Positions 4,266 through 45,436 of a stretch of 64,000 nt of DNA are shown in pieces; the first letter of the stretch is position 1; each line of letters opens with the position of its first letter. The DNA comes from an uncultured bacterium. Lineage in GTDB: Bacteria > Macinerneyibacteriota > Macinerneyibacteria > Macinerneyibacteriales > CAYRFE01. The stretch spans positions 37,333-101,332 of the forward strand of contig CAYRFE010000008.1 in NCBI GenBank assembly GCA_964423645.1, in the 5' to 3' direction. The notes below the pieces were generated by a model. The model was not told the origin of the DNA and searched no databases. It saw only the letters and a list, made by a program, of their open reading frames with translations. The position numbers and the translations under genes were made by a program.

Positions 4266-4427
4266 AAGCCCTTTGCAAAACTACCGTTTTTTGAATGTGT
4301 GCCCACCCCAAACCCCTCCCGTGAAAATCGGGAGGGGTTTAAATTATTATATAATGGGAACTTCGTCCCCACACCCCTTTTTAGAAAATAAAGATAATTT
4401 AGAAAATTTTAATTTTGCAAATATCTA
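4266..4427 (+). mobile_element. MITE copy A (short form, no REP cargo)
   Basis: Ends CCTTTGCAAAA / TTTTGCAAATATCT; shares TGTGCCCACCCCAAACCCCTCCCGTGAAAATCGG and ACTTCGTCCCCACACCCC blocks with copies B-E. Confidence 0.75.
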
Positions 4428-4498
4428 AAGTTGCTTTTGTTGCTATAAAAGTGACAGCATTTTCATCGCACGATAGTAATGTGTCCGAAAAATCCGTG

Positions 4499-5176
4499 TC
4501 AACACGGCGGGTATACGATAAGATAATAGATTGCCAGAAAGTGAGAAATACTTCCACCAAGAACAAATATGTGCCAGATTACATGATTATACCGAATAGA
4601 ACGTTTAAGATAAAAAATGGTACCTACCGAGTAAAACAATCCGCCTACAAATAACATCACAAGACTGATTGCGCTCAAATTAATATATAGCGGCTTTATG
4701 GCAATGACAATAAGCCAACCCATAAGTAAATATAAAATCGTTGAAATAACACGGAATCGTTTCACGAGAAATACTTTAAATACGATTCCTCCCAATGCGA
4801 TTGACCATACGACGATGAAAATTGTCCACCCCATTACACCGCGCACGACGAGTAGCACAAATGGTGTATATGATCCTGCAATCAGCGCATAAATTGCTGC
4901 ATGATCGCAAATCTCCAAGACATTTTTTGCTTTCCCGTCTAAAAACCCGTGATACAAGGTTGATGCCGCATACAACACTATCAGGGAAATCCCATACATA
5001 TTAAAGCTGATCCTATAGAGAACATTCTCAATGGCAACTCCATTCACAATAAGCACGATATACGCTATGACAGAAAAGATAAAACCGATCCCATGCGTGA
5101 GCGCATGTAGAAATTCTTCTTTTCTTGAGAAATGCGGTTCACCTGTTTTTACGAGTTCTGTTTCGATACGTGTCAT
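4499..5176 (-). CDS. Hemolysin III / PAQR family membrane protein
   Basis: EEFLHALTHGIG, STLYH, DHAAIYALIAGSYTPF, HVIWHIFVLGG motifs. Confidence 0.95.
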   Translation of the reverse strand: MTRIETELVKTGEPHFSRKEEFLHALTHGIGFIFSVIAYIVLIVNGVAIENVLYRISFNMYGISLIVLYAASTLYHGFLDGKAKNVLEICDHAAIYALIAGSYTPFVLLVVRGVMGWTIFIVVWSIALGGIVFKVFLVKRFRVISTILYLLMGWLIVIAIKPLYINLSAISLVMLFVGGLFYSVGTIFYLKRSIRYNHVIWHIFVLGGSISHFLAIYYLIVYPPC

Positions 5177-5314
5177 CTCCGTTCATGACGACAGTATAAC
5201 GAAAGTAAGAATTTTTTCAATGTAAAATCATGTGCCACACACTAATAACGAGTAAGAAACACCTGACAAGAAAACCATTTGTCGATCCTACACATGCGGC
5301 GTTTGTTTGAAAAC

Positions 5315-5343
5315 TTGCACGCAAGAATATTTTCCGCTATACT
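5315..5343 (+). promoter_or_regulatory. Putative promoter TTGCAC-N17-TATACT, 6 nt before the ATG (leaderless geometry)
   Basis: Direct reading; no SD between the -10 box and ATG 5350. Confidence 0.65.
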
Positions 5344-5349
5344 CCACAC

Positions 5350-6162
5350 ATGAGTATGCCTAAATCCCTTCGTACACAATTATACCGTATTATTTTTGAA
5401 TCAGACACGAAGGCCGGAAGGACATTTGATTTAGCATTGATCGTATGCATTTCTCTCAGTGTTTTAACCGTAATACTTGAAAGTATCCCTTCTTTTTCAA
5501 CACAGTTTCAAACAGAATTTTTATACGCAGAATGGTTCTGGGTCACGTTGTTCGGTATTGAATATATGCTCAGGATATACTCGGCAAAAAGCCCTCGTAC
5601 ATATATTTTCAGTTTTTATGGTCTTATCGATTTACTTGCCATACTTCCGTCCATTGCCGGCATATTCTTCGTCGGTATTCACATGTTTCTAGTTCTACGC
5701 GTTCTTCGTCTTTTTCGAATACTTCGTATTTTTAAACTTGGGAAATTTTTGTATCAAACGCGAATCATCGTTGAATCGCTTCGTGCAAGCAAAGAAAAAA
5801 TAGGCGTTTTTTTATTTGCAGTAATTCTATTGGTGCTTTGCATGGGCACAGTTATGTACCAGATCGAAGGCGCTATCAACGAAGGCTTCAACAGTATCCC
5901 CAAAAGTATTTATTGGTGTATCGTCACGTTGACAACGGTTGGCTATGGCGATATAGCTCCGATCACGACGCTCGGGCGTTTTTTAGCAAGTGCATTGATG
6001 ATCACCGGTTATGCGATCATCGCAGTTCCTACCGGGATTGTATCGGTAGAAATGGCAAAACAAGCGCAGAGCAACACAACATCCGTTATATGCTCGAAAT
6101 GCAAAAAAGCGAACCACGAACAAGGCGCAGTTTACTGCAACACCTGTGGTAAAAAACTCTAA
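5350..6162 (+). CDS. Voltage-gated potassium channel-like ion transporter with C-terminal zinc ribbon
   Basis: S4 segment LRVLRLFRILRIFKL, selectivity filter TVGYGD, C-terminal CxxC...CxxC. Confidence 0.95.
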   Translation: MSMPKSLRTQLYRIIFESDTKAGRTFDLALIVCISLSVLTVILESIPSFSTQFQTEFLYAEWFWVTLFGIEYMLRIYSAKSPRTYIFSFYGLIDLLAILPSIAGIFFVGIHMFLVLRVLRLFRILRIFKLGKFLYQTRIIVESLRASKEKIGVFLFAVILLVLCMGTVMYQIEGAINEGFNSIPKSIYWCIVTLTTVGYGDIAPITTLGRFLASALMITGYAIIAVPTGIVSVEMAKQAQSNTTSVICSKCKKANHEQGAVYCNTCGKKL

Positions 6163-6166
6163 CAAT

Positions 6167-6192
6167 GAAAAAGGGCGCTTTCGCGCCCTTAA
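6167..6192. terminator. Bidirectional intrinsic terminator between convergent genes
   Basis: AAAAAGGGCGC-TTTC-GCGCCCTT hairpin. Confidence 0.7.
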
Positions 6193-6215
6193 AGAATCTT
6201 ATTAAACTAATTCAA

Positions 6216-6830
6216 TTAAAACATGAAGCCGACGGTCGCATAAAGTGTACGAAGCTGAACTGCATCACCTTCATTATCTTTCACAATGTCAGTCAGACCG
6301 TGATTGTAACGAGCATCAAATACAAGTTTGCTAACCTTAACTTGAACACCCATAATAGCACCCATTTCAGTTGAACTTGTGAAATCTTTCATATCCATAG
6401 ATTCAACTTCGTCGCCATCAACTTCTACTATAGCTTCAGCTGTCACAAGGAAACCCATACTTAGTCCGCCATATACCTTCATCATCGGTAAAAGGCTTAA
6501 TTTTGCCATTACCGGAACTTCGATATAATCCGCTTTCATAATATAGTCAACGTCACCCTCTTCATAGCTCCATGTGTATTTTTCGCCTTTTTGGGTATAC
6601 AGTACTTCCGCACCTAAAGAAAGCGGGCCAAGAGGAAGTTCCATCATGATACCACCGGTGAGGCCTAAACGAAACGGGTTACTTTCATCAACCCACGGCG
6701 GTTGAGTTTCTTCGCCATACACAATATTACCCATGGTCAATCCAGCCTTGATACCAAACTCAGGACCGATAGCGTTCACGGAAAACACAGCAACTAAAGC
6801 TACCAACAACACAACTAAAACTTTTTTCAT
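6216..6830 (-). CDS. Outer-membrane beta-barrel protein (PorT/OMP_b-brl_2-like), array copy 1
   Basis: Signal peptide, FGIKAG, YTQKG, LDYIEVP-type, DARYNxGLTDI motifs, terminal Phe. Confidence 0.85.
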   Translation of the reverse strand: MKKVLVVLLVALVAVFSVNAIGPEFGIKAGLTMGNIVYGEETQPPWVDESNPFRLGLTGGIMMELPLGPLSLGAEVLYTQKGEKYTWSYEEGDVDYIMKADYIEVPVMAKLSLLPMMKVYGGLSMGFLVTAEAIVEVDGDEVESMDMKDFTSSTEMGAIMGVQVKVSKLVFDARYNHGLTDIVKDNEGDAVQLRTLYATVGFMF

Positions 6831-6890
6831 ACAGTCACCTCCGTTTTTCATACATAAATATATACCCACATCGCAATATTTTCAAGGTAC

Positions 6891-6918
6891 AAAAAAAGGG
6901 GCGATCTCTCGCCCCTTT
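6891..6918 (-). terminator. Intrinsic terminator of porin copy 2 (repeated at ~7625-7652 for copy 3)
   Basis: AAAGGGGCGA-TCTC-TCGCCCCTTT with U-tract on the minus strand. Confidence 0.8.
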
Positions 6919-6940
6919 ACTTAAGTTTTTACAGAGTCAA

Positions 6941-7564
6941 TTAAAACATGAAGCCGACGGTAGCATAAAGAGTGCTTAGTTTTACTGCATCGCCTTCATT
7001 ATCTTTCATGATGTCAGTCAAACCCATGTTGTAGCGAGCATCAAATACGAGTTTGCTGATCTTTACTTGTGCTCCAAATATTGCACCCATTTCTGTTGAA
7101 TTCATGAAATCTTTCATGTCGGCAGATGCTACTTCTGTATCATTGATCTCAGAAACCATTTCAGCAGAAACTAAGAATCCAAAACTTACGCCACCATAAA
7201 ACTTTACCAATGGCAAAAGACTCAATTTAGCCATAACAGGAACTTCGATGTAATCGAGTTTCGCAGTTACTGATACAGGAACAGCTGCGAGATAATTATT
7301 CGCAAATGTATCGAACTTCTCACCTTTTTGAGTATAAAGAAGTTCAGCACCCAAAGACAACGGACCCATAGGCATTTCCATCATAATACCACCGGTTAAT
7401 CCTGCACGAAACATATCCGTGTCAAAATCTTGCGGTGCGTTATCATCACCATACACAATATTACCCATGGTCAATCCAGCCTTGATACCAAACTCAGGAC
7501 CGATAGCGTTCACGGAAAACACAGCAACTAAAGCCACCAACAACACAACCAACATTTTTTTCAT
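6941..7564 (-). CDS. Outer-membrane beta-barrel protein, array copy 2
   Basis: Paralog of copy 1 with the same conserved motifs and different loops. Confidence 0.85.
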   Translation of the reverse strand: MKKMLVVLLVALVAVFSVNAIGPEFGIKAGLTMGNIVYGDDNAPQDFDTDMFRAGLTGGIMMEMPMGPLSLGAELLYTQKGEKFDTFANNYLAAVPVSVTAKLDYIEVPVMAKLSLLPLVKFYGGVSFGFLVSAEMVSEINDTEVASADMKDFMNSTEMGAIFGAQVKISKLVFDARYNMGLTDIMKDNEGDAVKLSTLYATVGFMF

Positions 7565-7674
7565 ACAGTCACCTCCGTTTTTCATACATAAATATATACC
7601 CATATCGCAATATTTTCAAGGTACAAAAAAAGGGGCGATCTCTCGCCCCTTTGCGTAAGTATTTAGAGAGTCAA

Positions 7675-8283
7675 TTAAAACATGAAGCCGACGGTAGCAT
7701 ATAAAGTGCGCAAATTAACTGCATCGCCTTCATTATCTTTCATGATATCGGTAAGACCATGATTATAGCGCGCATCGAGTACGAGTTTGCTGATCTTTAC
7801 CTGCACACCCATGATAGCGCCCATTTCTGTTGTATTTATGAAATCTTTCAAGTCCATTGAGTCTACTTCTTCACCATCGATTTCAACAATTTCTTCAGCA
7901 GTTGTTAAAAAACCAAAACTTACTCCGCCGTATACTTTTACTATAGGAAGAAGATTCAATTTTGCCATTACAGGAACTTCGATATAATCGAGTTTGAGGT
8001 TTATCAATAAATCGCCCTCTTCTTCAAAAGTGTATTTCTCGCCCTTTTGAGTATACAACACTTCGGCGCCAAGTGAAATCGGACCCATAGGCATTTCCAT
8101 CATGATACCACCGGTCAAACCGAATTTCAATGGGTTGTCGAGACCTTCGAAATCACCATTCTCTTCACCCCATACTACATTACCCAATACTAATCCGCCC
8201 TTGATACCAAACTCAGGACCCATAGCATTCACAGAAAACACAGCAACTAAAGCCACCAACAACACAACCAACATTTTTTTCAT
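7675..8283 (-). CDS. Outer-membrane beta-barrel protein, array copy 3
   Basis: Paralog of copies 1 and 2. Confidence 0.85.
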   Translation of the reverse strand: MKKMLVVLLVALVAVFSVNAMGPEFGIKGGLVLGNVVWGEENGDFEGLDNPLKFGLTGGIMMEMPMGPISLGAEVLYTQKGEKYTFEEEGDLLINLKLDYIEVPVMAKLNLLPIVKVYGGVSFGFLTTAEEIVEIDGEEVDSMDLKDFINTTEMGAIMGVQVKISKLVLDARYNHGLTDIMKDNEGDAVNLRTLYATVGFMF

Positions 8284-8360
8284 ACGGTCACCTCCGTTTT
8301 TCATACACAAATATACACCCGTACGACCTATTTTTCAAGGCAAAAACAAAATTGATACAT

Positions 8361-8386
8361 AAAAAAAGCCGCCCGAAGGCGGCTTC
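8361..8386 (-). terminator. Intrinsic terminator downstream of the 497-aa OMP
   Basis: AAGCCGCC-CGAA-GGCGGCTT with U-tract on the minus strand. Confidence 0.8.
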
Positions 8387-8407
8387 CGAAAAAAAGATTC
8401 TATACAA

Positions 8408-9901
8408 TTAGAAAGTAAATGAAAGACCACCGGTGAAACCGACACCTTGAGAATTCAAATCTACTTCGTCATTCCAGTCACCTTCATCACCATTTTCAGT
8501 ATACTTTGTTGGATTCGCATACATATCGACCATTAAATTACCAAATACTGCAATTTCAGGAGTAAGAAGTACATCAAGTCCTGCTCTTCCGGTAAAACCG
8601 ATCGCATTTGCTTTCAATTCAGAGTTAGCGTCATCACCTTTGACTGTAACCATACTATACCCGCCTGCAACGCCAAGGTTAAGCGCAAAACGGTTAAAAT
8701 ACACTCTATATCCCACACCAGCGTTAATAATAACCTGAGAAGCGGTTACTCCCTCAATTCCTTCTTCAAAACTCGGCATCGTATATCTTCCGCCGATTTC
8801 AAAATATAATTCTGATACATTGACAACCGGGCCAAGATCGTACGCCATGGTAACATGAATAGAAGGATGAATCCCTTTTATTGGTTCTTCATTGCCCCAT
8901 GCATATTTCAACGGACTCATACCGAATGCAGCACGGAACTCAAGACCGAGTTTACCGTCTTCTTTCGCCTGATCGCCTTCTTCGGCACTTCCGATAAGGA
9001 TCTGCGCTTCAGATTTGGTCTCATCAATCTTACGAACCTTACCGAATGATTTCATTATCAATTTGCCGTCTGCGGTATACGTATATGTTTTGTAGCGGTG
9101 ATCCATTTTAATGCCGCTGTCTTTACCAAAATCAAAACCAAAACGCCCGCCGCCGATCATGGTAACAACTGCACTGATCGTAAATTCAGGTGTATTACGA
9201 AGATCTTTTTTTATTACTTCAAAAAGACCGGCAACCGAATTGCGGAAATTCGTCTGTTTTTCTTTTTCTTCAGTCGACAGATTTTTCAGATCGCTGTTGT
9301 CAACACTGAAGGTACTTAAACCGGACATTAACGCACCAAGCACACTGGTCTTGTTATTTGCAGTCAGTGTGTGAATTTTTTCTTTTGTTTCAACATTGTA
9401 AATATCAAAATGCATTGCCATAGTGTAGGTATACTCGGTATACACTTCTTCTTGACCAAGCAAATTCTTTTTCTTTTTTTCTTTGGTAACCACGCTGATG
9501 GTGTCAATATAAGGAACGGCAGCATAAGAATGATTAAGAGTCTTAATCAAATCATCTGCAGTCACCATTGCTTCTTTAAACTTCCCGTCTGCTTCCATAC
9601 GCTGTGCGGCGATATCACGCAAATTTGCTTTGATAAACGCTTCCGCATTATCAAGGAAGCTTTGGAGAGACCCTTTGTTCACATCAAAAAAATCCACGCG
9701 TTTAAAATCAGCAACAAACATCTTATACATCTGTTTGTCAACGAATACTTCACGATCTCTGTTCATCTCACCTCTTGCATCGGGACCGTACTGAACAGGG
9801 AAAATAAACAATGATTTACGCTCATACTTCGTGAGCTCTTGAGCAAATACACTACCCAAAGCGACAGCCAATACCAAAACCAACAACACAACCTTTTTCA
9901 T
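8408..9901 (-). CDS. Exported two-domain protein: periplasmic alpha/beta N-domain plus probable C-terminal beta-barrel
   Basis: Signal peptide ending VFA-Q; alternating amphipathic strands in the last ~190 aa; ends GLSFTF. Confidence 0.6.
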   Translation of the reverse strand: MKKVVLLVLVLAVALGSVFAQELTKYERKSLFIFPVQYGPDARGEMNRDREVFVDKQMYKMFVADFKRVDFFDVNKGSLQSFLDNAEAFIKANLRDIAAQRMEADGKFKEAMVTADDLIKTLNHSYAAVPYIDTISVVTKEKKKKNLLGQEEVYTEYTYTMAMHFDIYNVETKEKIHTLTANNKTSVLGALMSGLSTFSVDNSDLKNLSTEEKEKQTNFRNSVAGLFEVIKKDLRNTPEFTISAVVTMIGGGRFGFDFGKDSGIKMDHRYKTYTYTADGKLIMKSFGKVRKIDETKSEAQILIGSAEEGDQAKEDGKLGLEFRAAFGMSPLKYAWGNEEPIKGIHPSIHVTMAYDLGPVVNVSELYFEIGGRYTMPSFEEGIEGVTASQVIINAGVGYRVYFNRFALNLGVAGGYSMVTVKGDDANSELKANAIGFTGRAGLDVLLTPEIAVFGNLMVDMYANPTKYTENGDEGDWNDEVDLNSQGVGFTGGLSFTF

Positions 9902-9937
9902 AGAAAAAACCTCCTTCGTTATTTCAGTTCACATGCC

Positions 9938-9966
9938 AGTATACACCTGCCATTGTTATTTTGCAA
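9938..9966 (-). promoter_or_regulatory. Putative promoter TTGCAA-N17-TATACT
   Basis: Direct reading upstream of the GGAGG SD of 8408..9901. Confidence 0.65.
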
Positions 9967-10040
9967 GGTGTTTTTACCCTTTTATTTTGTATCTGTTGAA
10001 GATAATAAAAAACGCAAAAAGTACAATTTTTTAATCTAAA

Positions 10041-10172
10041 TGAGTTAAATTCCCCGAAGCTTGCTTTGGCGTTACTATTATAGTTTTGTTATTATAAAGG
10101 GTGTGGTGACGGCAAACAAATAAAGCATTTTTTTGAGGAGATACACCGTAGCTTGCTGCAGGGTAGTTCATT
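10041..10172 (-). mobile_element. Small non-autonomous remnant with IS200/IS605-like terminal hairpins
   Basis: Minus strand GAACTACCCTGCAGC-AA-GCTACGGTG ... CCAAAGC-AA-GCTTCGGGGAATTTAAC: two decayed copies of a CCCCGCAGCAAGCTGCGGGG-type hairpin. Confidence 0.55.
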
Positions 10173-10286
10173 AGGTATACACTCACAAATGAAATACTGC
10201 ACCGCACGTATCCCACAATATCACTACGCCGTTGCTTCGCCCCCTCCACTGCTCTTCTTATCACAATAGACCGTTGAAGTAAAAAA

Positions 10287-12124: not shown

Positions 12125-12269
12125 ACACCTCTCCTCTTTCATGTCGAGTATATCGGAAAGCACCGTCTATGTCGAGAAAATTTGACTAAAATCATACCGC
12201 AACTATTACTGTACACCTGATTCCGAACCGAATTTTATTCGCTCATTTTTGTGAATCGGAAACAAAAAT

Positions 12270-12371
12270 AATTGTAGGAACAGAAAATATTTCTGCCTGC
12301 CTCTCGAGTTTAACGAGAAGGGGTTTGGGGAGAGCACAAATTAAAAAATATTGTAGTTTTGCTAAGGGCTC
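12270..12371 (-). mobile_element. Partial, degenerate MITE copy F
   Basis: GTAGGAACAGAAAATATTTCTGCC...GGGGTTTGGGGAGAGCACAAATT...GTTTTGCTAAGGGCTC resembles the right half of copy C. Confidence 0.55.
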
Positions 12372-12533
12372 GTGCATGTGATAGGTAATTGAGGAAGAAA
12401 ATTCGCAATAATTATTTGATTACTACACGCTCAATCGTGCAGCGTTCGTCCAACCACTTTTTTTCGTGAATAATTTCAATTATCAGATGATGCAGGGACA
12501 AGATAATAGCCCTGTCCCTGCAGAGATAAACCG

Positions 12534-13454: not shown

Positions 13455-13508
13455 ATATCCCTCCTTTTCATTTATCCATCCGAAACTACGTCTGCCACTA
13501 TATTTTTT

Positions 13509-13536: not shown

Positions 13537-13561
13537 GAGACCTTTACGAGACTTCCTTTTT

Positions 13562-13764
13562 GATATCTTTGTAAAACTACTTTTTTTATATATTTGTGCC
13601 CACCCCAAACCACTCCCGTGAAAATCGGAAGGTGGGCAGAAAGATCTTCTGCCCCTACAAAAATTCTCAATGGAGCGGGCGCATATCATGCGCCCGACTT
13701 CGTCCCCACACCCCTTTTTAGAAAATAAAGATACTTTGGACATTTTGAATTTTGCAAAGGTCTA
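13562..13764 (+). mobile_element. MITE copy B (~203 bp) with two REP-like hairpins
   Basis: Ends ATCTTTGTAAAA / TTTTGCAAAGGTCT; contains GGGCAGAAAGATCTTCTGCCCCTAC and GGGCGCATATCATGCGCCC. Confidence 0.8.
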
Positions 13765-13880
13765 AATCTCTCAACGATGAGATGATATTCGCGAGTCACG
13801 TGAAAGAATTCAATGCGTATCATCATGAAAAACTTGAAGCATGTCGGGGTGAACATGAGCGATCACCCCGAATGTGAGAA

Positions 13881-16800
13881 TTATCGTTCAAATGAAAAAC
13901 GTTTCATCAGCGTTACAAATAATGCCGGTAACACAACAAGTGTCAATGCGGTTGATGTCATCAAACCGCCGATCAAAGTAATAGCAAGGGGTTGTGACAA
14001 TTCACTGCCTTTTCCGATACCTAATGCAAGCGGAAATAACCCGAGTATGGTCGTAAGTGATGTCATAAGAATCGGTCTGAAACGCATTGTGCATCCTTTT
14101 TTCACTGCCTCAATCAGTGGCATTCCTTCTCGCATCAATGTATTGATAGTATCAATTTCCAGAATACTATCATTCACGACAATACCCGTTGCAACAACAA
14201 TTCCCATTAAACTCATGATATTAAATGATGTATGTGTCAATAACATAAGCGTTAACGATCCGATCAACGCCATTGGGACCGCAAGCATAATAATAACAGG
14301 CTGCAAAAAAGACTCAAACTGCATCCCGATCAGCATATACACCAATAAAAGAGCAAGACCGAACGCAAACCACAGCCCCGAAAAAGATTCTTTCATGTTC
14401 TCGATCTTCCCGCCGATTTTCAACTTGATCGGTTTGTCCCCGTTTAGGGTCTTAAAGGTATCATTGATCATGATCACCGCTTTTTCCAAACTTTTTCCCT
14501 TTATATTACAGAGTAATGACACTTTTCGACGTTGATCTTCACGTTTTAATTCATTCGGAACTTTTATTGAACGCAATTCAACAATATCTCCTACTTTATA
14601 TTCGGTTTTCCCGACAACGATCATACGCTCCAAGAACTCTTGTTTGCTTGGCGTGTTCTCATCATTTTTAAGCCATATGTCTATCTCTTTTGAGCCATCA
14701 TAAATAGTAGTTGTTTTCACCCCGACGGTCACTTTTTTCAATTGCTCAACAACTTCATACAACGGCACTGTGGATGATGCAATAAAATAATCTTTAAAGC
14801 GTAATTCAAGAATCTCACGCTCAAGCTCCAGATCTTTCTCAATGGCCGTGATCCACGAAAAATCCTTTTTTAATGCTTGTCGCATCGTATCAGCCAATAC
14901 ATTTAATTGCTCAATATCATCGCCTTCAAGCATCAGATCGAGATCATATTCACCAAAATCAAAAAACTGGTTGTACACACTGCCGGCCGAATAAAATGTA
15001 TACTCTATACCATATGAGGCAAGTAACGTATCGGAGATATGCTTTTTCAGCGGTTCAACATCATGAATCGATTGTGTCGCGATAAGGAAATATCCGGTAT
15101 TCACCCCTGCGATAGAATTTGAATACGACTTTCCTACATTAGCGATATGATACCGTATCACGTCTTTTTTTTCTTCAAGAATATTTTCAATGAGCTTTAC
15201 GTATTTCATGTTCGCATCAATCGTTGCACCGGTCGGAAGTGAATACTCAAGAAAAAACTTATCCTCCTTTACCGGCGGCACAAACTCACGTCGAATGGTC
15301 ATGCCCATAGATATGGTTATCAAAAATACAATTGCTGTTATCATGATAATTTTCTTTTTATTCTCTAAAACATTCACAAGTTGTTTTTGGTACTTCGATA
15401 ATACAAATAACAACATTTCATCAAACCAGGAAAAAATCTTTTTGGCTTTTTGTATAAACCATGCATTAAATCGTTCCATTTTTAATACGTACAACAACAT
15501 AGGCACAAACGTCAACGCGATGATAAGTGATGCAAGTAACGCCATGGTAATGATCAGTGCTTGTTCTTTAAACAATACTGCGACAACACCTTTAAGGTAC
15601 AAAACCGGTAAAAACACCACGATCGTTGTCAGTGTTCCCACGAGAATTGACGGTGCCATTTCCGTCGCACCCCTGATAATGCTTTCTTTTACCGTTAATC
15701 CCTCTTCGCGATAACGGTCTATATTCTCCATGACAACTACCGAGTTATCGGTCAACAAACCTATTCCAATCGCTAACCCGCCGAGAGATAAAATATTAAA
15801 ACTGATCCCAAAAAAATACATGCCGACAAATGTGGTAATAATAGATAACGGCATCGCAAAACCGATAATGAGCGGAGTGCGAAAATCATGTAGAAATATG
15901 AATAAAACAAAGAATGAAAGAATTCCTCCCCATACGACAGACCACGCAATATTTGCGATCGCCTGCAATATCGTATCGGAATCATCATACAATATACTGA
16001 GTTCCACCTTGTCCTTCGTATTTGATTCTTTTTTGAATTCCTGAATTAGTTTTCGCACTTCTCGACACACATTAACCGTATTCGCAGAAGATGATTTTAT
16101 AACAAATAAACCGACTCCCCTATCGCCGTTATAACGTGTGATTTCATCATTTTTCTTGACTCCACGTTCAATAACTGCAACATCTTTCAACTTAACGGTG
16201 GTCGAAATGCTCAGATTCCCGATCTCTTCAACCGAAAAACGATTTTTCTCTAATGACAATGAATATGAAAAATTTTCATCGCCGATCTCACCTGCGGATG
16301 CCGCAATATTATTCTGTTGCAACGCTCGGCTGATATCGTTAAAGCTAAGCCCGTATGATATCATATCTCTATTCTTTATCAAAACTCGTATCTCTTCTGT
16401 ATCAGCACCGACAACTTCACAAACCGCAACACCTTCAAGTCGCTCGATACGGTATTTGAGATAGTCTGATGCAAATCTGCTTATTTCAAGAAAATCATTG
16501 CCCTGTTTCGGTTCAACCATGACCTGCATTACAGGGGCTTGTGCAGGATCAAAATAGAGAATATTGGGTTTTTCCGCATCTCCTATATCGTCTTTTACCA
16601 TGTCAAGCTTTTCACGCGCCTTGAGCATGGTGTACTCCATATTGACTCCCCAATAAAATTCTACCGTTACAAGAGACTTACCGTCGGTTGATACCGATGT
16701 CACACGCTTCACATCAGGCAATGTGCTTAATTGACTTTCAATTTTTTGCGTGATGGTCTGATCCACTTCTTCAGGTGGCATATCAGGTGCTTTTGTCTCA

Positions 16801-23802: not shown

Positions 23803-24009
23803 ATAATCCTCCTTATAATAGAAGCTTATACGTCACACGCAAATCGGTGTTGCATATATACGCACATATGACAGTTAACGGAACATAAAAGTTTCACCTA
23901 GAAGCGGATACACACATACCTATATCATATATTGATGAAATTGCAAGCAAATTACTTATCGGGACGCAATCTTGAAAGCAATCATTTGAATAAATTGACT
24001 TTCAAACCA

Positions 24010-24211
24010 GAGACCTTTGCGAAATTCAAAATTTGTCATTTTTCTGGTTTTATCAAATAGGGGTGGGGGGACGAAGTCGGGCGCATGGTATGCGCCCGCT
24101 ACAGTAGGAATTTTTGTAGGGGCAGAAGATCTTTCTGCCCGCCTCCCGATTTCCACGGGAGGGGTTTGGGGTGGGCACAAATTCAAAAAATGATGGTTTT
24201 GCAAAGCTCTC
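24010..24211 (-). mobile_element. MITE copy C (202 bp), best-preserved terminal inverted repeats
   Basis: GAGACCTTTGCGAAA ... TTTTGCAAAGCTCTC; internal back-to-back GTAG REP-like hairpins. Confidence 0.85.
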
Positions 24212-24487
24212 AACCATTTAAAAAATACCATGTATCGAATGATGTGCCCACCAAATACTTATTGTTTTGTGTATGAAGCGTTTGCGTTTTTCTATAGTAA
24301 TGAGATCTTCGATCACACTCCTTCATAATAACAAAGATATATAAAATACAAAAATGAAATTTATAAAGGTCGGTTTTTTCTTGAAAACATACGCATCAGC
24401 GCAATGACACACCCCTTATTACAACATACCTGTATGCTAGAACATTCGTGATACGGCGTGAGTTATTTGAGCATAGACGATCTCCAC

Positions 24488-32556: not shown

Positions 32557-32790
32557 ATAGATTCCTCTTATTAAGTAACTACTAATTACCGTACATACAC
32601 TGACGCTTAAATTTTATCATGATAGTAATGAGCAAATTCCCTGTTTATTATTACAATAGACTGTTCGTATCATGAAATCTTTGTAAAACTATTCTTTTAA
32701 AAATCAAGCGTACTTCTGCCAAAGGGTAAATAACCTCGGCCGACACGAAAATCTAATGCAGTAATGTCGGGTAAGCGCAAATTTTTCTAT

Positions 32791-32993
32791 AAAACCTTTG
32801 CAAAAATCAAAATTATCAGATTTTCTTTTTTCTCTAAAAAAAGGGGGGGGGGACGAAGTCGGGCGCATGATATGCGCCCGTTCCATTGAGAATTTTTGTA
32901 GGGGCAGAAGATCTTTCTGCCCACCTTCCGATTTCCACGGGAGGAGTTTGGGGTGGGCACAAAGTTTAAAACTGGTAGTTTTTCAAAGGTCTC
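32791..32993 (-). mobile_element. MITE copy D (~203 bp) with two REP-like hairpins
   Basis: ACCTTTGCAAAA ... TTTTTCAAAGGTCTC; internal sequence nearly the reverse complement of copy B. Confidence 0.82.
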
Positions 32994-37000: not shown

Positions 37001-37024
37001 GACACACAACTCCTTTCAAGAACG

Positions 37025-38322: not shown

Positions 38323-38343
38323 AGTGTTCTCCTTAACGTGTTA

Positions 38344-39111: not shown

Positions 39112-39127
39112 ATAATTTGCCTCCTTT

Positions 39128-39203
39128 GGTTAAACCTCCAATTCCGCTCAAGGCTTTTACGCCCACCAACTACACGGAATTGTGTGGAATAAAACATATA
39201 CCC
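39128..39203 (-). promoter_or_regulatory. rpsB (S2) autoregulatory leader-like structure
   Basis: Minus strand GGGT...CACAC-AATTCCG...CGGAATT-GGAGG-TTT-AACC mirrors the CACAC/stem/GGAGG..AACC layout of the known S2 leader. Confidence 0.7.
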
Positions 39204-39210
39204 TTGTCTG

Positions 39211-39600
39211 TTAACGTTTCGAGAACTGGAAGCGTCTGCGCGCACCGCGTTGTCCGTATTTCTTACGTTCTTTCATTCTCGGATCACGTTTCAGAAATCC
39301 GGCTTTTTTCAATACAGGACGCAATGTTTCATCCATTTTAACCAAAGCACGTGCAAGACCATGGCGTATTGCTCCCGCCTGACCGCTCAAACCACCACCA
39401 TGAACATTAATATGTACATCATAACGACTTAACATATTTAATACTGCAAGTGGGCTTTTCACGACATCCTGATACGCACCAACGGTAAAATATTGTCCCA
39501 TTTCAAGTTTATTGATGGTAACAAGTCCTTTTCCGGTCAATAAACGAACACGGGCAACTGCAGTTTTACGACGTCCTGTTCCCCAGTATACTGTTGTCAC
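39211..39600 (-). CDS. rpsI: 30S ribosomal protein S9
   Basis: [32 protein letters not shown]...FQFSKR. Confidence 0.99.
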
Positions 39601-39621
39601 ACTACCCCTCCCTTCTTTACG

Positions 39622-40059
39622 TTATTTTGTAACTTTGATCAATTCCGGCTGTTGAGCCGCATGACCGTGTTCAGCACCTTCAAACACCTTAAGACGCGTG
39701 AGCATACGATCACCGAGTTTGTTTTTCGGAAGCATACCGCGTACGGCCTTCGAAACAACAAATTCCGGTTTTTCACGCATGAGACTGTCATAACGGCGTT
39801 CAGTCAATCCGCCCGGATAACCTGAGTGGCGATAATAAAATTTTTGAGTCAATTTATTACCTGTCAATCGTACCTTCGCCGCATTAATAATAACTACATA
39901 ATCACCGGTATCGACCATCGGTGAAAACATAGGCTTATTTTTGCCGCGGAGAATAAGCGCCACTCTCGATGCCAAACGACCAAGAACTTCGTTGCTGGCA
40001 TCCACGACATACCACTTACGCTGTATGTCTTCTTTTTTTGGCAAAAAACTTTTCATCAT
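39622..40059 (-). CDS. rplM: 50S ribosomal protein L13
   Basis: WYVVDA...LGRLAS, DTGDYVV, YRHSGYPGG, VRGMLPKN. Confidence 0.99.
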   Translation of the reverse strand: MMKSFLPKKEDIQRKWYVVDASNEVLGRLASRVALILRGKNKPMFSPMVDTGDYVVIINAAKVRLTGNKLTQKFYYRHSGYPGGLTERRYDSLMREKPEFVVSKAVRGMLPKNKLGDRMLTRLKVFEGAEHGHAAQQPELIKVTK

Positions 40060-40112
40060 ACCCTCCTTACACTGGATATACTTCGCCCACTGATGCATTA
40101 TCGCTCGGTCAT

Positions 40113-40139
40113 ATTATAAGCATCGCATTTTAATGTCAA
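40113..40139 (-). promoter_or_regulatory. Putative rplM operon promoter TTGACA-N15-TATAAT
   Basis: Consensus hexamers but a short spacer. Confidence 0.45.
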
Positions 40140-40408
40140 GAAAAAAACACGCTATCTGCCTGCCATAATACAAAATACTTGTTATTTCGCGTGTTTCTTC
40201 GAAAAAATGGATTTTCCGCTGCTCATTCAAATTTTTTCTAAAAATTTTCACCATCATAAAAAAAAGAGCGCATTTCGGCATCTTTGAACAAACAGCATGA
40301 TTGGTTCATACAAACTATCTTTAACTTTCCCCATGTATTCATTATTTTTACGTTCATTTTCATCTGTATATATGCTATAATAAACAATAAAATTACGGAG
40401 GTAGAGTC

Positions 40409-41272
40409 ATGCCGGATTTATCAGCTATAATGAGTAAAGTTCAGGAATTACCCACACTTCCCGATGTCAGTATGAAAATCTTAAAACTTGTCAATGAAAG
40501 TTCAACGTCTACTCAATCGCTTGCAAAAATAATTGAACGAGATCCCGCATTGGCAACGAAGATCTTAAAATTCATTAACTCCGCATATTTTTCACTTTCA
40601 AGGAAAATAACCAATATACAACAAGCGGTTACCTACCTTGGATTTCATCACATATCACAGTTGGTCATATCAGTTACAATTTTCAGTAAAATGGATTTTT
40701 CAAACGGAGTATTTTCCATGGAGAATTTCTGGATTCACAGCATGTTTGTGGCTGATTACAGCAAAATCCTTGCGATCGTGTCAAAAAAAACAAACCCGGA
40801 TGATGCCTACACCGCCGGGCTGTTGCATGATATCGGAAAAATGTTTTTGATAAAATATTTGACTCCGAATATGGAGGATATTCTTTCAACGGCATTTACA
40901 AATAAATCATTTTTATATGACGAAGAATATGCAAAAATGAAAATAGACCACAATATGACCGGAGAATGGTTATCGAAAAACTGGAAACTTCCCGGATATA
41001 TTTGTGATGCATGTCACTATCATAATATGCCGTTTGAAAAACGAAAGCATGTCTCAATGCTTGATCCGGGACTCGTTAATTGCGTCTCGTTAGCAAATAA
41101 ATTAATGAATATAAAACTGAAAGGCTATAGCGGAAGCTATGGAGAATACACGATCGAAAAGGCAGAACTTGATGCGTTGGGTGTAAGCGTCACGGATCTT
41201 GTACAATACGAATCGGGTATGGAAGCTCGCCTTCAAAGCGCAAAAGAGATGTTACATATTATCAAGGAATAA
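40409..41272 (+). CDS. HDOD domain-containing protein
   Basis: LPTLP, DPALATKILKFINSAYF, FWIHS, AGLLHDIGK, DHNMTG..L..NWKLP. Confidence 0.93.
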   Translation: MPDLSAIMSKVQELPTLPDVSMKILKLVNESSTSTQSLAKIIERDPALATKILKFINSAYFSLSRKITNIQQAVTYLGFHHISQLVISVTIFSKMDFSNGVFSMENFWIHSMFVADYSKILAIVSKKTNPDDAYTAGLLHDIGKMFLIKYLTPNMEDILSTAFTNKSFLYDEEYAKMKIDHNMTGEWLSKNWKLPGYICDACHYHNMPFEKRKHVSMLDPGLVNCVSLANKLMNIKLKGYSGSYGEYTIEKAELDALGVSVTDLVQYESGMEARLQSAKEMLHIIKE

Positions 41273-41296
41273 TTCGGAACCGCTTATACGTTTTTT

Positions 41297-42256
41297 CTAT
41301 TCGAAGTATGAATCATATATTATTTCTTTTATTTGATAGACCGTAAGGAAATCGTCCCTTTTGCAATCAAAGATCTCCAAATGCAGATGCTCTCCCTTGT
41401 TTGGTTTACGCGCATTGATACCGGTATTGCCACCTTGCCCCAAAAGGGTACCGGAGCGAACTATTTGTCCGGGCACGACGACGACATTATACATATGAAA
41501 ATAAAAATAATATCGTTCTGAAAAAGGATCGAACACAATGACACCATTGCCGCTGTGGGGGCTTAAACCGCCTGCATTTGTCGTGACATCGCTCGTCCAT
41601 TCCCGAGCAGCGGCTACTATGATTCCCGGTGTATACGAATAGATTGAAGGTCCTATCTGCTCATCTCCGAGTATTTTTGTTTCGGTAAAAAACAAATCAA
41701 GTGCCGTTTGATGCCCCTCCCGTAAACGATACGTAAGAGGGCGAAAAAACATTCCTTCATCAACAATCCGTGTAGAATAATAGTGCGGAATAGTATCAGC
41801 GCTCCATGCATAATACATACTGAATAACGCATGGTATCGTTTTCTGTTTTGAAACGCATCAGAGCGTAATACAAGGAGCTTTCTATAAAAATCGCCGTAA
41901 CTCCCTTTTTCTTGAGCGAATATGGTGCATTTTTGGCGTATGAACTCTTCAGAGGCCAACATTGCATATATGAAAACAGCGGGGGGGCATATCTGGGCTC
42001 CGACTTCTTGACGTACAACAATTCCGCGCTGAATCGCTTCATACGTCGTGAGCATCTGGTGTTCATATTCACTGTCCGATAACTTTACCATATACGAGTA
42101 TTCAAGATCGGAAAATAAAACATCCCGCTCTCGCATTACATTAATTACGACGCGCATTTCATCAGAAACGTAAGTATTTATCATGACAAAAAACGAAGCT
42201 AATACAAAAAACCATACGGTTATTTTTAAAATAATTATTTTAACATGAGCAGTCAT
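41297..42256 (-). CDS. M23 family metallopeptidase with N-terminal TM anchor
   Basis: HQTALDLF, GNGVIV, YFHM, GNTG, HLHLEI. Confidence 0.75.
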   Translation of the reverse strand: MTAHVKIIILKITVWFFVLASFFVMINTYVSDEMRVVINVMRERDVLFSDLEYSYMVKLSDSEYEHQMLTTYEAIQRGIVVRQEVGAQICPPAVFIYAMLASEEFIRQKCTIFAQEKGSYGDFYRKLLVLRSDAFQNRKRYHALFSMYYAWSADTIPHYYSTRIVDEGMFFRPLTYRLREGHQTALDLFFTETKILGDEQIGPSIYSYTPGIIVAAAREWTSDVTTNAGGLSPHSGNGVIVFDPFSERYYFYFHMYNVVVVPGQIVRSGTLLGQGGNTGINARKPNKGEHLHLEIFDCKRDDFLTVYQIKEIIYDSYFE

Positions 42257-42262
42257 ACAGAG

Positions 42263-42291
42263 AGCATAGTTTTTAAAAACGGTTTTGTCAA
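42263..42291 (-). promoter_or_regulatory. Putative promoter TTGACA-N17-TATGCT, 6 nt before ATG 42256 (leaderless geometry)
   Basis: Direct reading on the minus strand. Confidence 0.65.
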
Positions 42292-42349
42292 TTACTTCTC
42301 CCATTATTTATATTTTTTTTCATCTGTATGGCAATTCAGACTCAACAAG

Positions 42350-42378
42350 TTGACAATGCCGCGTATATCTGATATGAT
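42350..42378 (+). promoter_or_regulatory. Putative promoter TTGACA-N17-TATGAT
   Basis: Upstream of the GGAGG SD of the nitroreductase. Confidence 0.65.
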
Positions 42379-42406
42379 AACAATTCATATAGTATGGAGG
42401 GTGTAT

Positions 42407-42973
42407 ATGGAAGTTCAAAATGCACTACATGATCGTCGTTCATATCGTGCACTCGATACATGTAAATTTTCTGATTTCATTATTCATGAACTTGCCACAG
42501 CAGCGTCGCTTGCACCGTCGTGTTTTAATAATCAACCGTGGCGTTTTGTTTTTGTATCGAATGAATTACTCCTCAAAGAAATGCATTCGGTGTATTCGCC
42601 TGGGAATGAATGGGCAAGCGCAGGGTCCGGTGTAATAGCCGTGCTTTCCAAAAAAGAGCTGGATTGCATCATCGGAGATCGATTATATTATCAATTCGAT
42701 ACCGGCATTGCCGTAGGGCTTTTGATGTTACGAGCTGTTGAATTGGGACTGGTCACTCATGCGATCGCAGGATTCAACGTCGAAAAAACACGAAAATTGC
42801 TTGCGGTCCCTCAGGATTATGACATTATCACGCTTATTATTGTGGGGGCAAAAGGCAAATCGGATAATCCGCTCCTCACTGATGCACAAAAAGAAGCCGA
42901 GTCGGTTCGTCCTCAACGTAAAAATATTGACGAGATTCGTTTTATAAATAAATATTCTCAGGATAAAGGATGA
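42407..42973 (+). CDS. Nitroreductase family protein
   Basis: RRSYR, APSCFNNQPWRFV, DTGIA, GLVTHAIAGF, RPQRK. Confidence 0.93.
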   Translation: MEVQNALHDRRSYRALDTCKFSDFIIHELATAASLAPSCFNNQPWRFVFVSNELLLKEMHSVYSPGNEWASAGSGVIAVLSKKELDCIIGDRLYYQFDTGIAVGLLMLRAVELGLVTHAIAGFNVEKTRKLLAVPQDYDIITLIIVGAKGKSDNPLLTDAQKEAESVRPQRKNIDEIRFINKYSQDKG

Positions 42974-42979
42974 TACTCT

Positions 42980-44122
42980 ATGGAAAATCGTAAAATTTTG
43001 TATATTGAAGATGATTCGTTGATCATGGAACTCTTTCGCGCCTCATTTGAACAATTTCTTCCTCATACTACTTTTTACGGTGCATCAACCGGGAAAGAAG
43101 GATTAGAAATTGCCCGTACAATTCACCCTCATCTGATAATGCTTGACATGGGGCTCCCCGATATGGCGGGTATTGATATTTTGATCGAACTAAAAAAAGA
43201 TCCTCACTTTACGGCTACACCCGTTATCGTCGTAACCGGCAGTACTGACTCTGACGATAAAATGGCGGCTCTGGAAAACGGAGCGATTGATTTCTTGAGT
43301 AAGCCCTGCAATATTCGAGAACTTATTGCTCGGATCACACTGCATTTACGGCAGATCGACTACATACAAAAAATAGAAGAAAAAAACGCCCAATTGGAAG
43401 AGGATCTTGAAGCGGGAAGAAAAATTCAATTTAAACTGTTGCCCCCTAAGCAAAGAGAGATCGGGCCGTTCACCTTCAACGGTTTTCTCTTCCCCTCGAT
43501 GCACTTAAGCGGAGATTTTTTAGATTATTTTCCAATTGATGAACGTTATACCGGTTTTTATATTGCAGATGTTTCAGGACACGGCGTATCATCTGCATTT
43601 GTAACGGTCTTTTTGAAAAGCTTTGTACAAAATGCCCTTGAGCAGTACCATGGAGGCGTCGAGAAAGATATTATTAATCCCGATAAATTGTGTTCAAAAC
43701 TTAACAGGAATCTGCTGGATGAACGTCTCGGTAAATATATGACCGCTTTTTATGCTGTTATGGATTCCCAGACAAACACATTGACCTACACCATAGCAGG
43801 TCAATATCCGTTTCCTATTATCACTCACATGGGTTCTACTCGATATCTTTCCGGCACGAATGTTCCATTAGGCTTGTTCCCGCAATCAGAATATAGTGCC
43901 GAAACTATTTCATTGGATGATATACATGAAATAATTCTCATATCTGACGGTGTTCTCGAGATACTTCCTCACCCTACTTTACGTGAAAAACAAAGTTTTT
44001 TATTGAACATCACACAAAAGACTGATATAACCATTGATAGCTTGGTTGAAGCATTCGGCTTACAAGAAAGAACCTCGTTACCGGATGATATAACGTTTTT
44101 ACTTGTCCAAAGGAGGAAATGA
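42980..44122 (+). CDS. Response regulator receiver fused to SpoIIE/PP2C phosphatase (RssB/RsbU-like)
   Basis: Receiver (EDD, LDMGLPD, KP), coiled coil, ADVSGHG, SDG, DDIT. Confidence 0.92.
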   Translation: MENRKILYIEDDSLIMELFRASFEQFLPHTTFYGASTGKEGLEIARTIHPHLIMLDMGLPDMAGIDILIELKKDPHFTATPVIVVTGSTDSDDKMAALENGAIDFLSKPCNIRELIARITLHLRQIDYIQKIEEKNAQLEEDLEAGRKIQFKLLPPKQREIGPFTFNGFLFPSMHLSGDFLDYFPIDERYTGFYIADVSGHGVSSAFVTVFLKSFVQNALEQYHGGVEKDIINPDKLCSKLNRNLLDERLGKYMTAFYAVMDSQTNTLTYTIAGQYPFPIITHMGSTRYLSGTNVPLGLFPQSEYSAETISLDDIHEIILISDGVLEILPHPTLREKQSFLLNITQKTDITIDSLVEAFGLQERTSLPDDITFLLVQRRK

Positions 44123-44617
44123 ATGAATCCCGGAAAAATTGTATATGCGCAACATAACAGTATGTATATTATTAAAATGATTGGCACAATAAAATACACA
44201 CTGAGTTCTGATTTCGATGTTTTTATTGAGAAAATATTTCACTCTAAAAATTTTTCTAGCATTGTCATTGATATGAGCGAGACAGAATACATCGACAGCA
44301 CCAATTTGGGATTACTCGCAAAGATTGCCAACTATATGTTTGAGCATTTTCATCAAAAGGTCACTATTATCTCTACCAATGATGATGTCTGCGCAATCCT
44401 GCATAGCGTAGGCTTTACCAAAATTTTTTCGATTATTGAGAAACCGTTAAGCTGTGCCGTGAAAATGAATGATCTTGAACCAACTCAAGCCGGAAGCGAA
44501 TATCTTGGAAAAGTATTACTCGAGGCTCATGAATTTCTGGCCGGAATTGATGCTCATAATAACGAGGTTTTTAAAAACGTGATCGATGTACTCAAAAAAA
44601 ATCAAACCGGTGTATAA
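44123..44617 (+). CDS. STAS-domain anti-anti-sigma-like protein (RssC-like)
   Basis: IDMSETEYIDSTNLGLLAKI with a phosphorylatable Ser; C-terminal EAHEFL..ID..N. Confidence 0.85.
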   Translation: MNPGKIVYAQHNSMYIIKMIGTIKYTLSSDFDVFIEKIFHSKNFSSIVIDMSETEYIDSTNLGLLAKIANYMFEHFHQKVTIISTNDDVCAILHSVGFTKIFSIIEKPLSCAVKMNDLEPTQAGSEYLGKVLLEAHEFLAGIDAHNNEVFKNVIDVLKKNQTGV

Positions 44618-44644
44618 ATCAATCTCATGAACACAGGAGAATAT

Positions 44645-45121
44645 ATGAAAAATATTATCAGTATCATATGCTTTGTTATACTGACACACACATTGTGTGC
44701 GCAATCGGTCAACAAAGGAAATCTTATTTTTATTCACACTGAACGTGATACCAACACGCTGAAAAGTAATGATACGCTCGCGACCGATATGTTTTACATC
44801 ATTGATGGAGATGAATCAAAAGGCGAAGTTATCCTTACATTCAATCTTACCGAAAATTACAAAGAAGCATATCTGATTGTAAATATCCCGGACAGAGAAT
44901 GGGCAGAAACCAATGACGGATTTGATATATTCTTAAAGGACAAAAAAGTAGCGTCGATCTCATCCGCCGCACGAAACAGTTGGCTTGAGATTAAACTCGA
45001 CCATACCCTGTTACCGGCTTCAGGAACGGTTGAATTTACACTACGATCAATAAAAAATGACGGATTATACATCTGTTCCAAGAAAAGCGGGAAGGGCGCC
45101 GTTTTAAAAGTCGTTCAATAA
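44645..45121 (+). CDS. Exported beta-rich hypothetical protein
   Basis: Signal peptide ending LCA-Q; SD ACAGGAG. Confidence 0.6.
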   Translation: MKNIISIICFVILTHTLCAQSVNKGNLIFIHTERDTNTLKSNDTLATDMFYIIDGDESKGEVILTFNLTENYKEAYLIVNIPDREWAETNDGFDIFLKDKKVASISSAARNSWLEIKLDHTLLPASGTVEFTLRSIKNDGLYICSKKSGKGAVLKVVQ

Positions 45122-45271
45122 CAGTTTCGGAATATTTTGTTGTTTTTACACGGCAAAAGCGGAAATGACGTAATAAGTTACATTGTTTAGTGTCCTTTTT
45201 TTGTATCAATACACGAAATGAGCATATAAGGAATTTCTCCGTCGATCATGAGCATAGATTCAAGCACAGAG

Positions 45272-45436
45272 CGAATTCTTCGCAAAACTTGATAATTTAC
45301 ATTTCTTTATTTTTCGTAAATAGGGGTGTGGGGACGAAGTCCCCACTATACTAGAATATAAAGCCCTTCCCAAAAAGAAAAGGGGGCGGTTTGGGGTGGG
45401 TACAATTCATAAAAATAGTAATTGTATAAAGCTCTC
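45272..45436 (-). mobile_element. MITE copy E (degenerate short form, no REP cargo)
   Basis: TAGGGGTGTGGGGACGAAGT and GGTTTGGGGTGGGTACAA blocks; end TATAAAGCTCTC. Confidence 0.65.

Follow-up and report, generated by a model that had tools for sequence, protein, structure and literature searches.

The 64,000-nt stretch of uncultured bacterial DNA analyzed here (hereafter the window) carries a non-coding repeat of about 200 bp in several of its intergenic regions, which raises the question of how this repeat was dispersed and how the hairpins in its interior came to be there. [quoted passage not shown] The first half of this proposal is favored by the present analysis: the repeat is best explained, with a probability of about 0.75, as a lineage-specific, high-copy MITE moved by a DDE-type transposase, while the REP-like hairpins appear to be carried passively.

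Repeat discovery, multiple alignment, and a search of the window with an nhmmer profile built from the five full copies agree on one repeat family, consisting of five full copies (three of ~202 bp and two of ~163 bp), one half copy, and two to three end remnants. This confirms the earlier count of at least five copies plus a fragment, in both orientations and all intergenic. With the forward orientation defined as GAGACC...GGGGTGTGGGGACGAAGTC...GGTTTGGGGTGGGCACA...GGTCTC, three full copies are forward and two are reverse. The long copies are located at 24010-24211 (forward, 202 bp, E = 3e-69, used as the reference for anatomy), at 13562-13764 (reverse, E = 2e-68) between an NMT1-like gene and a resistance-nodulation-division (RND) pump gene, and at 32791-32993 (forward, E = 3e-67) between two convergent genes, a major facilitator superfamily transporter gene and fliG. 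The short copies are located at 4266-4427 (reverse, E = 3e-43) and 45273-45436 (forward, E = 2e-37), the latter being the most diverged of the five. The half copy (12265-12372, forward, E = 3e-16) runs from the GTAG tag of a degenerate second hairpin through the right terminal inverted repeat (TIR). The remnants include a weak right end at 45472-45522 (forward, E = 0.017), which follows the short copy at 45273-45436, a solo TIR-like sequence GAGACCTTTACGAGA at 13537-13551 just outside a long copy, and a match to the TIR motif at 32675-32688.

Every copy in the window is intergenic, although intergenic DNA makes up only 8.7% of it (P ~4e-7 for six independent insertions). The family accounts for ~19% of this intergenic DNA, and six of the 12 gaps of at least 150 bp hold one element. 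Copies are 162-203 bp long with short, unconserved reading frames, and the six translated frames of the element, used as queries, matched no protein family; the single match was an open reading frame (ORF) overlapping another copy. Further copies from the same organism are found on three other contigs, namely L024 (5854-6057), L026 (14446-14608, 14647-14762, and 18403-18455), and L014 (15831-15894), which brings the total in ~110 kb to seven full copies plus five or more partial copies or fragments. Two short-form copies on L026 lie in tandem (14446-14765), each followed by the same flank of ~40 bp (ATAACAGATTTCCTCTG...), and this pair would be a local duplication of element plus flank rather than two insertions.

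The ends of the element carry most of the evidence for its mode of transposition. Boundaries were set by the best match to the TIR consensus before flanks were compared, and six of the seven full copies were scored for target duplications. All six have 15-bp TIRs of the GAGACCTTTGCAAAA type at both ends, with one to four mismatches to the consensus. The TIRs match AGACCTTTGCAAAA with zero to three mismatches, and such matches number 20 in the window compared to 9.2 +/- 3.2 in shuffled sequences, and none of 100 shuffles reached 20. Perfect 5-bp target duplications abut the TIR ends in three of the six copies: AACCA (24005-24009 and 24212-24216) around the long copy 24010-24211, AAGTT (AACTT in element orientation; 4261-4265 and 4428-4432) around the short copy 4266-4427, and TCCTT around the long-form copy on L024. 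The flanks of a fourth copy, 45273-45436, agree at three of five positions, and the long copies at 13562-13764 and 32791-32993 have no target duplication. Flank repeats of 3, 4, 6, 8, or 9 bp gave no match in any of the six. Because we estimate the chance of one perfect 5-bp match at ~0.001 per copy, three among six copies are not a chance result. Moreover, the flanks of other copies in metagenome contigs diverge at 24210-24212, which coincides with the TIR end and fixes the right boundary.

In general, TIRs combined with target duplications of fixed length are the mark of a DDE-type transposase, and their joint occurrence here thus argues for DDE-type transposition, as the earlier note had held. 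Its assignment of the ends to the IS5 type is likewise borne out. The TIR consensus of the family is identical to that of the insertion sequence (IS) ISNme1 of Neisseria meningitidis, listed as GAGACCTTTGCAAAA / TTTTGCAAAGGTCTC (PMC4596501 Table 2), and is close to the ends of ISPg1, ISPg4, ISPg9, and the BrickBuilt/MITEPgRS elements (PMC4596501; PMC2575886). ISNme1, ISPg1, ISPg4, and ISPg9 are all listed as IS5 family (PMC4596501 Table 2).

Several observations weigh against this reading. No DDE transposase of any family was found in the 64-kb window or in ~45 kb more (L014, L024, and L026), and the IS5-family transposase with these TIRs that the earlier note had suggested as a check was not found in these ~110 kb of the organism's sequence. 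Half of the scored copies have no perfect target duplication. Neither an empty site nor a presence/absence polymorphism was found, and the copies are the same in other assemblies of the species. Window copies share 58-84% identity in pairwise comparison; most of them are therefore old, and their present mobility is unproven. In addition, conservation is higher in the internal G-rich blocks than in the arms and TIRs, which could mean a host function rather than purely selfish spread. A relative with a 91% identical RecA has no element upstream of recA, but a different upstream gene is found there, synteny is broken, and only promoter-proximal sequence aligns.

The number of copies in the genome was estimated from two aquatic-metagenome runs in which the organism is present, with a single-copy depth of 19.4 in X1 and 5.9 in X2, by dividing the summed depth of the aligned contigs by the single-copy depth; these values are rough, since variable parts align less well. 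The right core of the element reaches a summed depth of 3132 in X1 (~160 copies) and 780 in X2 (~130 copies). In X1, the second hairpin of the long form reaches ~1230-1450 (~64-75 copies) and the first hairpin ~500 (~26 copies). The long contigs aligned to the family have a depth of 17-20, which is that of the organism itself. The hairpin doublet aligns to 43 metagenome contigs, most of which run on into MITE sequence, and the second hairpin is also met with other left-hand neighbors and in truncated copies. The hairpin content of the family is therefore a mosaic rather than strictly bimodal, as the earlier note would have had it.

In the reference copy, the left TIR GAGACCTTTGCGAAA (24010-24024) is followed by an AT-rich arm (24025-24059) that differs between copies and by a conserved G-rich block (24060-24078; GGGGTGGGGGGACGAAGTC, with the family form GGGGTG(G/T)GGGGACGAAGTC). 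Hairpin 1 (GGGCGCAT-GGT-ATGCGCCC; 24079-24097) comes next and is followed by a G and the tag CTAC (24099-24102), which is GTAG on the other strand. A 13-nt spacer (24103-24115) separates this tag from the GTAG tag (24116-24119) of hairpin 2 (GGGCAGAA-GATCT-TTCTGCCC; 24120-24140). Hairpin 3 (CCTCCCG-ATTTCCA-CGGGAGG; 24142-24162) overlaps the right G-rich block (24157-24179; GGGAGGGGTTTGGGGTGGGCACA), after which a second variable AT-rich arm (24180-24196) leads to the right TIR TTTTGCAAAGCTCTC (24197-24211). The right core, comprising hairpin 3 and the G-rich block (24142-24179), shows the strongest conservation in the family and is also its most abundant part. The predicted single-stranded DNA fold is a TIR-closed, multi-hairpin structure, with z-scores of -5.0 (long form) and -3.3 (short form). 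The loops of the hairpins vary between copies, whereas the stems are retained, and in hairpin 1 of the L024 copy a C:G pair has undergone a compensatory change to T:A. The sequence GGGAGGGGTTTGGGGTGGG at 24157-24175, and its equivalent in the copy at 4266, is a canonical four-run G-quadruplex motif over the 3' arm of hairpin 3; of the five copies in the window, three have this four-run pattern interrupted.

Each long copy in the window has exactly one GGGCAGAA-N5-TTCTGCCC hairpin and one GGGCGCAT-N3-ATGCGCCC hairpin. The earlier note had described both hairpins as GTAG-capped in all three long copies; the hairpins are indeed present in all three, but GTAG stands beside the GGGCGCAT hairpin in only one (24099-24102). 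Across the genome copies, the CTAC tag after hairpin 1 is nevertheless the majority state, with departures amounting to 12-23% of depth. GTAG accompanies GGGCAGAA..TTCTGCCC in all long copies, and GTAG(C) accompanies GGGCGCAT..ATGCGCCC in the family majority. The short copies lack hairpins 1 and 2 and have instead a hairpin formed from the left G-rich block, GTGGGGAC-GAA-GTCCCCAC (GTGGGGAC-GAA-GTCCCCAY), followed by an AT-rich stretch. This stretch had been taken for unrelated filler, but it belongs to a conserved subfamily module: the short-form junction ...CGAAGTCCCCACTATATAACAATTTAAGCC is common to 11 contigs in X1 and 16 in X2, and MAFFT pairs the short-form CCCAYTATATAACAA with the long-form CCCGCTACATTGAGAA. 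Long and short forms are thus set apart by two separate indels, one of 16 nt and one of ~24 nt, on either side of a spacer that is partly homologous between them.

The origin of the tagged hairpins is the second part of the question. GTAG REPs are known to be arranged as inverted dimers, for which a nomenclature including the "tail-tail heterodimer" exists, and REP dimers embedded in longer palindromic repeats have been described in Anabaena variabilis (GTAG-15) and Pseudomonas putida (PMC3733652). With its inward-facing GTAG tags 13 nt apart and its unlike stems, the long-form pair is an inverted heterodimer that agrees with the published description of a GTAG REP inverted dimer (PMC3733652), and the comparison with REPs made in the earlier note therefore stands. 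The family is also accompanied by a candidate enzyme. Contig L024, which was reached via the translated-frame match of the element, carries a RayT-like gene of the HUH/Y1 type (6660-7460, 266 aa) located 600 bp beyond the long-form copy at 5854-6057, with another gene between them. The protein matches the REP-associated tyrosine transposase (RAYT) family NF047646 of NCBIfam with E = 5e-17; its 62 bits fall short of the 80-bit cut-off, as the match is split by an insert. It also matches Pfam Y1_Tnp with 26.3 bits (cut-off 23). Its only match of solved structure (E up to 1) is Escherichia coli TnpA_REP (4er8), and many of its homologues are named RayT by JGI. Both the HUH motif (NHMHG) and the tyrosine motif (Tyr in QPRFYDHIIR) are intact. 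Based on samples shared with the window organism in JGI and ENA, the family copy on the contig, and a tetranucleotide correlation to the window of r = 0.90, L024 very probably belongs to the window organism or a close relative. The window organism is present in ENA ERZ27262927 and ERZ27262924, in JGI 3300020048, and in run SRR7760390.

The RayT-like gene has palindromes of its own kind. Between the HUH and tyrosine motifs, it carries one to several in-frame, GTAG-tagged perfect palindromes (GTAGAGACGCCC..GGGCGTCTCTAC) encoding the peptide VETPNLGVST, and genes of this type were found at L024 6660-7460, L027 66-755, and L025 1968-2767. A VETPNLGVST-type peptide occurs at the same place in five of six aligned homologues, three of which are named (Calditrichota, Ignavibacteria, and Ancylomarina). 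The number of palindrome units varies between assemblies of the species, with proteins of 266 aa and 229 aa and, in another version, a gene call split into two ORFs.

The association of REP-like hairpins with a RayT-like gene could be read as nested mobility, in which a RayT (HUH/Y1) enzyme put the REP doublet (a REPIN) into the MITE and still acts on it, so that two transposase chemistries share one element. This is unlikely. In its favor are the tail-tail arrangement of two hairpins that are both tagged in the family majority, the proximity of the gene to a long-form copy, and the presence of GTAG hairpins outside MITEs at 1243-1268 and ~L026 18612-18640. Truncated copies that break at or beside a GTAG hairpin also fit. 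Such breaks are found in the half copy at 12265, in two contigs at 24115, and in a copy on L014 (15807-15894), which carries GTAGGCAGGGC as a third hairpin. However, the gene is not flanked by the doublet hairpins: no GC-rich hairpin is present in the 24 bp upstream or the 115 bp downstream of it, and the nearest is the MITE copy 600 bp upstream. The earlier note's suggestion of a RAYT flanked by these hairpins thus holds for the gene and fails for its flanks. The palindromes inside the coding sequence are of the GTAGAGACGC...GCGTCTCTAC type (GTAGAGACG), a different stem from those of the MITE hairpins. These two hairpins also have different stems from each other and so do not form a classical REPIN of two like arms, and the two indels between long and short forms do not resemble one clean insertion of a unit. 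The score against NF047646 is below the cut-off. Furthermore, no independent dispersal of the doublet was observed: in the window, neither hairpin occurs outside family copies (the half copy has a degenerate hairpin 2), most of the 43 doublet contigs continue into MITE sequence, and only related, non-identical GTAG hairpins stand alone. Mobilization of the doublet by an HUH enzyme, as the earlier note had envisaged, is consequently not supported, and it is doubtful that such an enzyme acts on the cargo of the element at all. It is at least as doubtful that the GTAG hairpins are live substrates of the RayT-like protein. Cleavage at the tags would then create the recurrent half-elements whose ends coincide with a GTAG hairpin and would swap central modules between MITE lineages. 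If this were true, a DDE-mobilized transposon would be remodeled by a second, single-strand transposase chemistry.

The stand-alone hairpin at 1243-1268 (forward; GTAGGGACAGGC-cttgt-GCCTGTCC) shares its first eight bases (GTAGGGRC) with hairpin 2 and is single-copy at >=85% likeness. It lies within a palindromic element of ~105 bp (1179-1283) bounded by GTGTCATT...AATGACAC, which also holds the hairpin GTCATTCCCGTGAAAGCAGGAATCC. Since the first 35 bp of this element occur at ~4x single-copy depth in X1, it is a low-copy repeat.

Two other explanations would dispense with DDE transposition or with selfish spread altogether, and both are very improbable. The element might be a compound palindromic repeat dispersed by a Y1/HUH enzyme alone, in the manner of the TIR families found near "TIRYT" genes or of the REP-plus-stem-loop repeats of Pseudomonas putida, such that its inverted ends merely belong to one long palindrome. 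Reports exist both of an association between RayT-like genes and long TIR families and of REP dimers within longer palindromes (PMC3733652), and the RayT-like gene is the only transposase-like gene found in the readable sequence of the organism. On the other hand, this gene is not bracketed by the ends of the element, and those ends are identical to the ends of a DDE IS family (PMC4596501). The perfect 5-bp target duplications at three of six copies also stand against it. To our knowledge, transposition by Y1/HUH enzymes (IS200/IS605 and the RAYT family) creates no target duplications.

Alternatively, the core could be kept by selection for a host function, for example as a protein-binding site, as a G-quadruplex, or as a signal for RNA stability or termination, and have spread on the MITE. 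The internal blocks are near-invariant while the arms drift, the core is far commoner than the arms at 80% likeness, and copies lie mostly downstream of genes. The retention of stems with varying loops and the compensatory change in hairpin 1 would also fit, as would the occurrence of a like hairpin with the motif GGGGTGGG in unrelated Prolixibacteraceae metagenome-assembled genomes (MAGs). Nevertheless, copies occur in both orientations relative to neighboring transcripts, and three of five copies have an interrupted G-run pattern. No RNA run was found to contain the organism. No Rfam family matched at gathering score in the whole window, and one copy searched at E up to 10 gave only chance-level matches (E >=0.4). 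A role as terminator was rejected, as only the copy at 4266 scores as terminator-like, and it does so on the strand opposite both neighboring genes.

The DDE-mobilized MITE thus remains the best explanation. A DDE-type transposase would act in trans on the non-coding element by recognizing its 15-bp GAGACCTTTGCAAAA ends and making a 5-bp staggered cut, which would leave the 5-bp target duplication. The family would have expanded in this way to ~130-160 copies, surviving only in intergenic DNA, of which it now occupies about a fifth. Its interior would be a mosaic of GC-rich stem-loops, with subfamilies differing in the central module (GTGGGGAC-GAA-GTCCCCAC and an AT-rich spacer in the short form, two inward-tagged GTAG hairpins in the long form). 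Most likely, REP-like hairpins of a kind also found elsewhere in the genome joined one MITE lineage and were then copied passively with each transposition. We infer passive carriage because no doublet hairpin in the window lies outside a family copy and most doublet contigs continue into MITE arms; the IS5-family identity of the partner and the REP origin of the hairpins are inferred likewise.

The closest known systems are MITEs derived from IS5 elements with GAGACC...TTGCA ends. These are ATR of Neisseria meningitidis, whose parent is ISNme1, and two elements of Porphyromonas gingivalis with ISPg1 as parent, BrickBuilt and MITEPgRS (PMC4596501; PMC2575886). The present family shares with them the terminal sequence of ISNme1 (GAGACCTTTGCAAAA / TTTTGCAAAGGTCTC), a small, non-coding, intergenic nature with short target duplications, and variable inner modules between fixed ends, MITEPgRS and BrickBuilt also carrying internal repeats (PMC4596501; PMC2575886). 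However, it has no internal sequence similarity to them, its ~130-160 copies are about ten times the 10-20 quoted in PMC4596501, its cargo consists of GTAG-tagged hairpins rather than tandem minisatellites, and no partner transposase was found in ~110 kb. The target duplications of BrickBuilt are variable, whereas those of the present family are only of 5 bp. Compared to GTAG REPs, REPINs, and bacterial interspersed mosaic elements, the hairpins are alike in having GTAG at one end of a palindrome of ~20-25 nt, in forming an inverted pair with the tags inside (a "TT" dimer) and with different stems (a heterodimer), and in the presence of a RayT-like gene in the genome; as in GTAG-15 of A. variabilis, the dimers lie inside longer palindromic repeats (PMC3733652). 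They differ in that they are not dispersed alone, are separated by a short spacer of 13 nt, and do not flank the RayT-like gene, and in that the unit as a whole is bounded by DDE-type ends with target duplications.

A further parallel is offered by the Correia elements (NEMIS/CREE) of Neisseria, which are high-copy intergenic MITEs with TIRs, occur in long and short classes defined by an internal segment, and have copies beside promoters. The present family resembles them in all of these respects, including size classes and a position next to promoters, although the sequences are unrelated. Correia elements duplicate TA, whereas the present duplication is of 5 bp and not sequence-specific. We know of no transposase for Correia elements.

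The family looks specific to one species. No copy and no TIR motif was found in ~80 kb from relatives with 75-79% RecA identity, and no copy in the 7.8 kb examined from the relative with 91% RecA identity. A core-motif scan of GTDB, with one genome per species, showed the family to be absent and matched only two orthologous loci in Prolixibacteraceae MAGs, which were rejected as members because they share only the GGGAGGGGTTTGGGGTGGGTACA hairpin end. A metagenome scan gave six weak, unrelated matches, a scan of viral contigs gave no match, and plasmid BLAST gave only chance matches of 27 nt. The hairpin CCCCTCCC-loop-GGGAGGGG was observed in unrelated Prolixibacteraceae MAGs and in the 91% relative (L004 330-385, L005 5079-5160, and L012 4715-4760). 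In the MAGs it is followed by TTTGGGGTGGGTACA, once as a long compound palindrome, and in the 91% relative the matching G/C-rich run is on the other side. By this resemblance, the right core of the MITE may derive from a widespread hairpin motif.

The window itself represents core chromosome, encoding recA, recX, secA, an RND efflux operon, a flagellar cluster, exbBD-tonB, and nadE. The RecA protein has one relative at 91% identity, a few at 72-79%, and then diverse phyla at <=~70% (Caldithrix, 69%; Fibromonadales, 68%), and the host is probably an uncultured flagellated bacterium of the FCB (Fibrobacteres-Chlorobi-Bacteroidetes) group. Every 4-kb bin of the window has a negative GC skew (-0.04 to -0.17), and the minus strand carries most of the genes, which is consistent with one replichore with a strong gene-strand bias. 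Three tandem paralogous genes for OMP_b-brl_2 outer-membrane beta-barrels are located at 6216-8310 in units of ~730 bp that are 60-92% identical, and the first two are each trailed by the same strong terminator AAAGGGGCGAGAGATCGCCCCTTTTTTT. The short copy at 4266-4427 ends ~10 bp upstream of the -35 box of the predicted recA promoter (within 4228-4266; -35 TTGTCA, a 16-nt spacer with TG, and -10 TATACT). In the 91% relative (L013), the part of this promoter that starts at the -10 box is conserved, and the element is not. Elsewhere in the assemblies, contigs L002, L003, and L015 end inside copies of the family.

MITEs with IS5-like ends and modular interiors have already been described, as have REP dimers in longer repeats, and the present family extends these known kinds. 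For this uncultured lineage, it explains intergenic assembly breaks, seen as contigs ending inside copies, and provides a species-specific marker. The copy ~10 bp upstream of the predicted recA promoter makes effects of the element on neighboring genes testable. The family is also a natural case of GTAG-tagged, REP-like hairpins inside a DDE-ended transposon whose host genome has a gene for a RayT-like enzyme as well, and as such it offers a test bed for whether REP-like hairpins spread only through RAYTs or may also hitch-hike on other elements.

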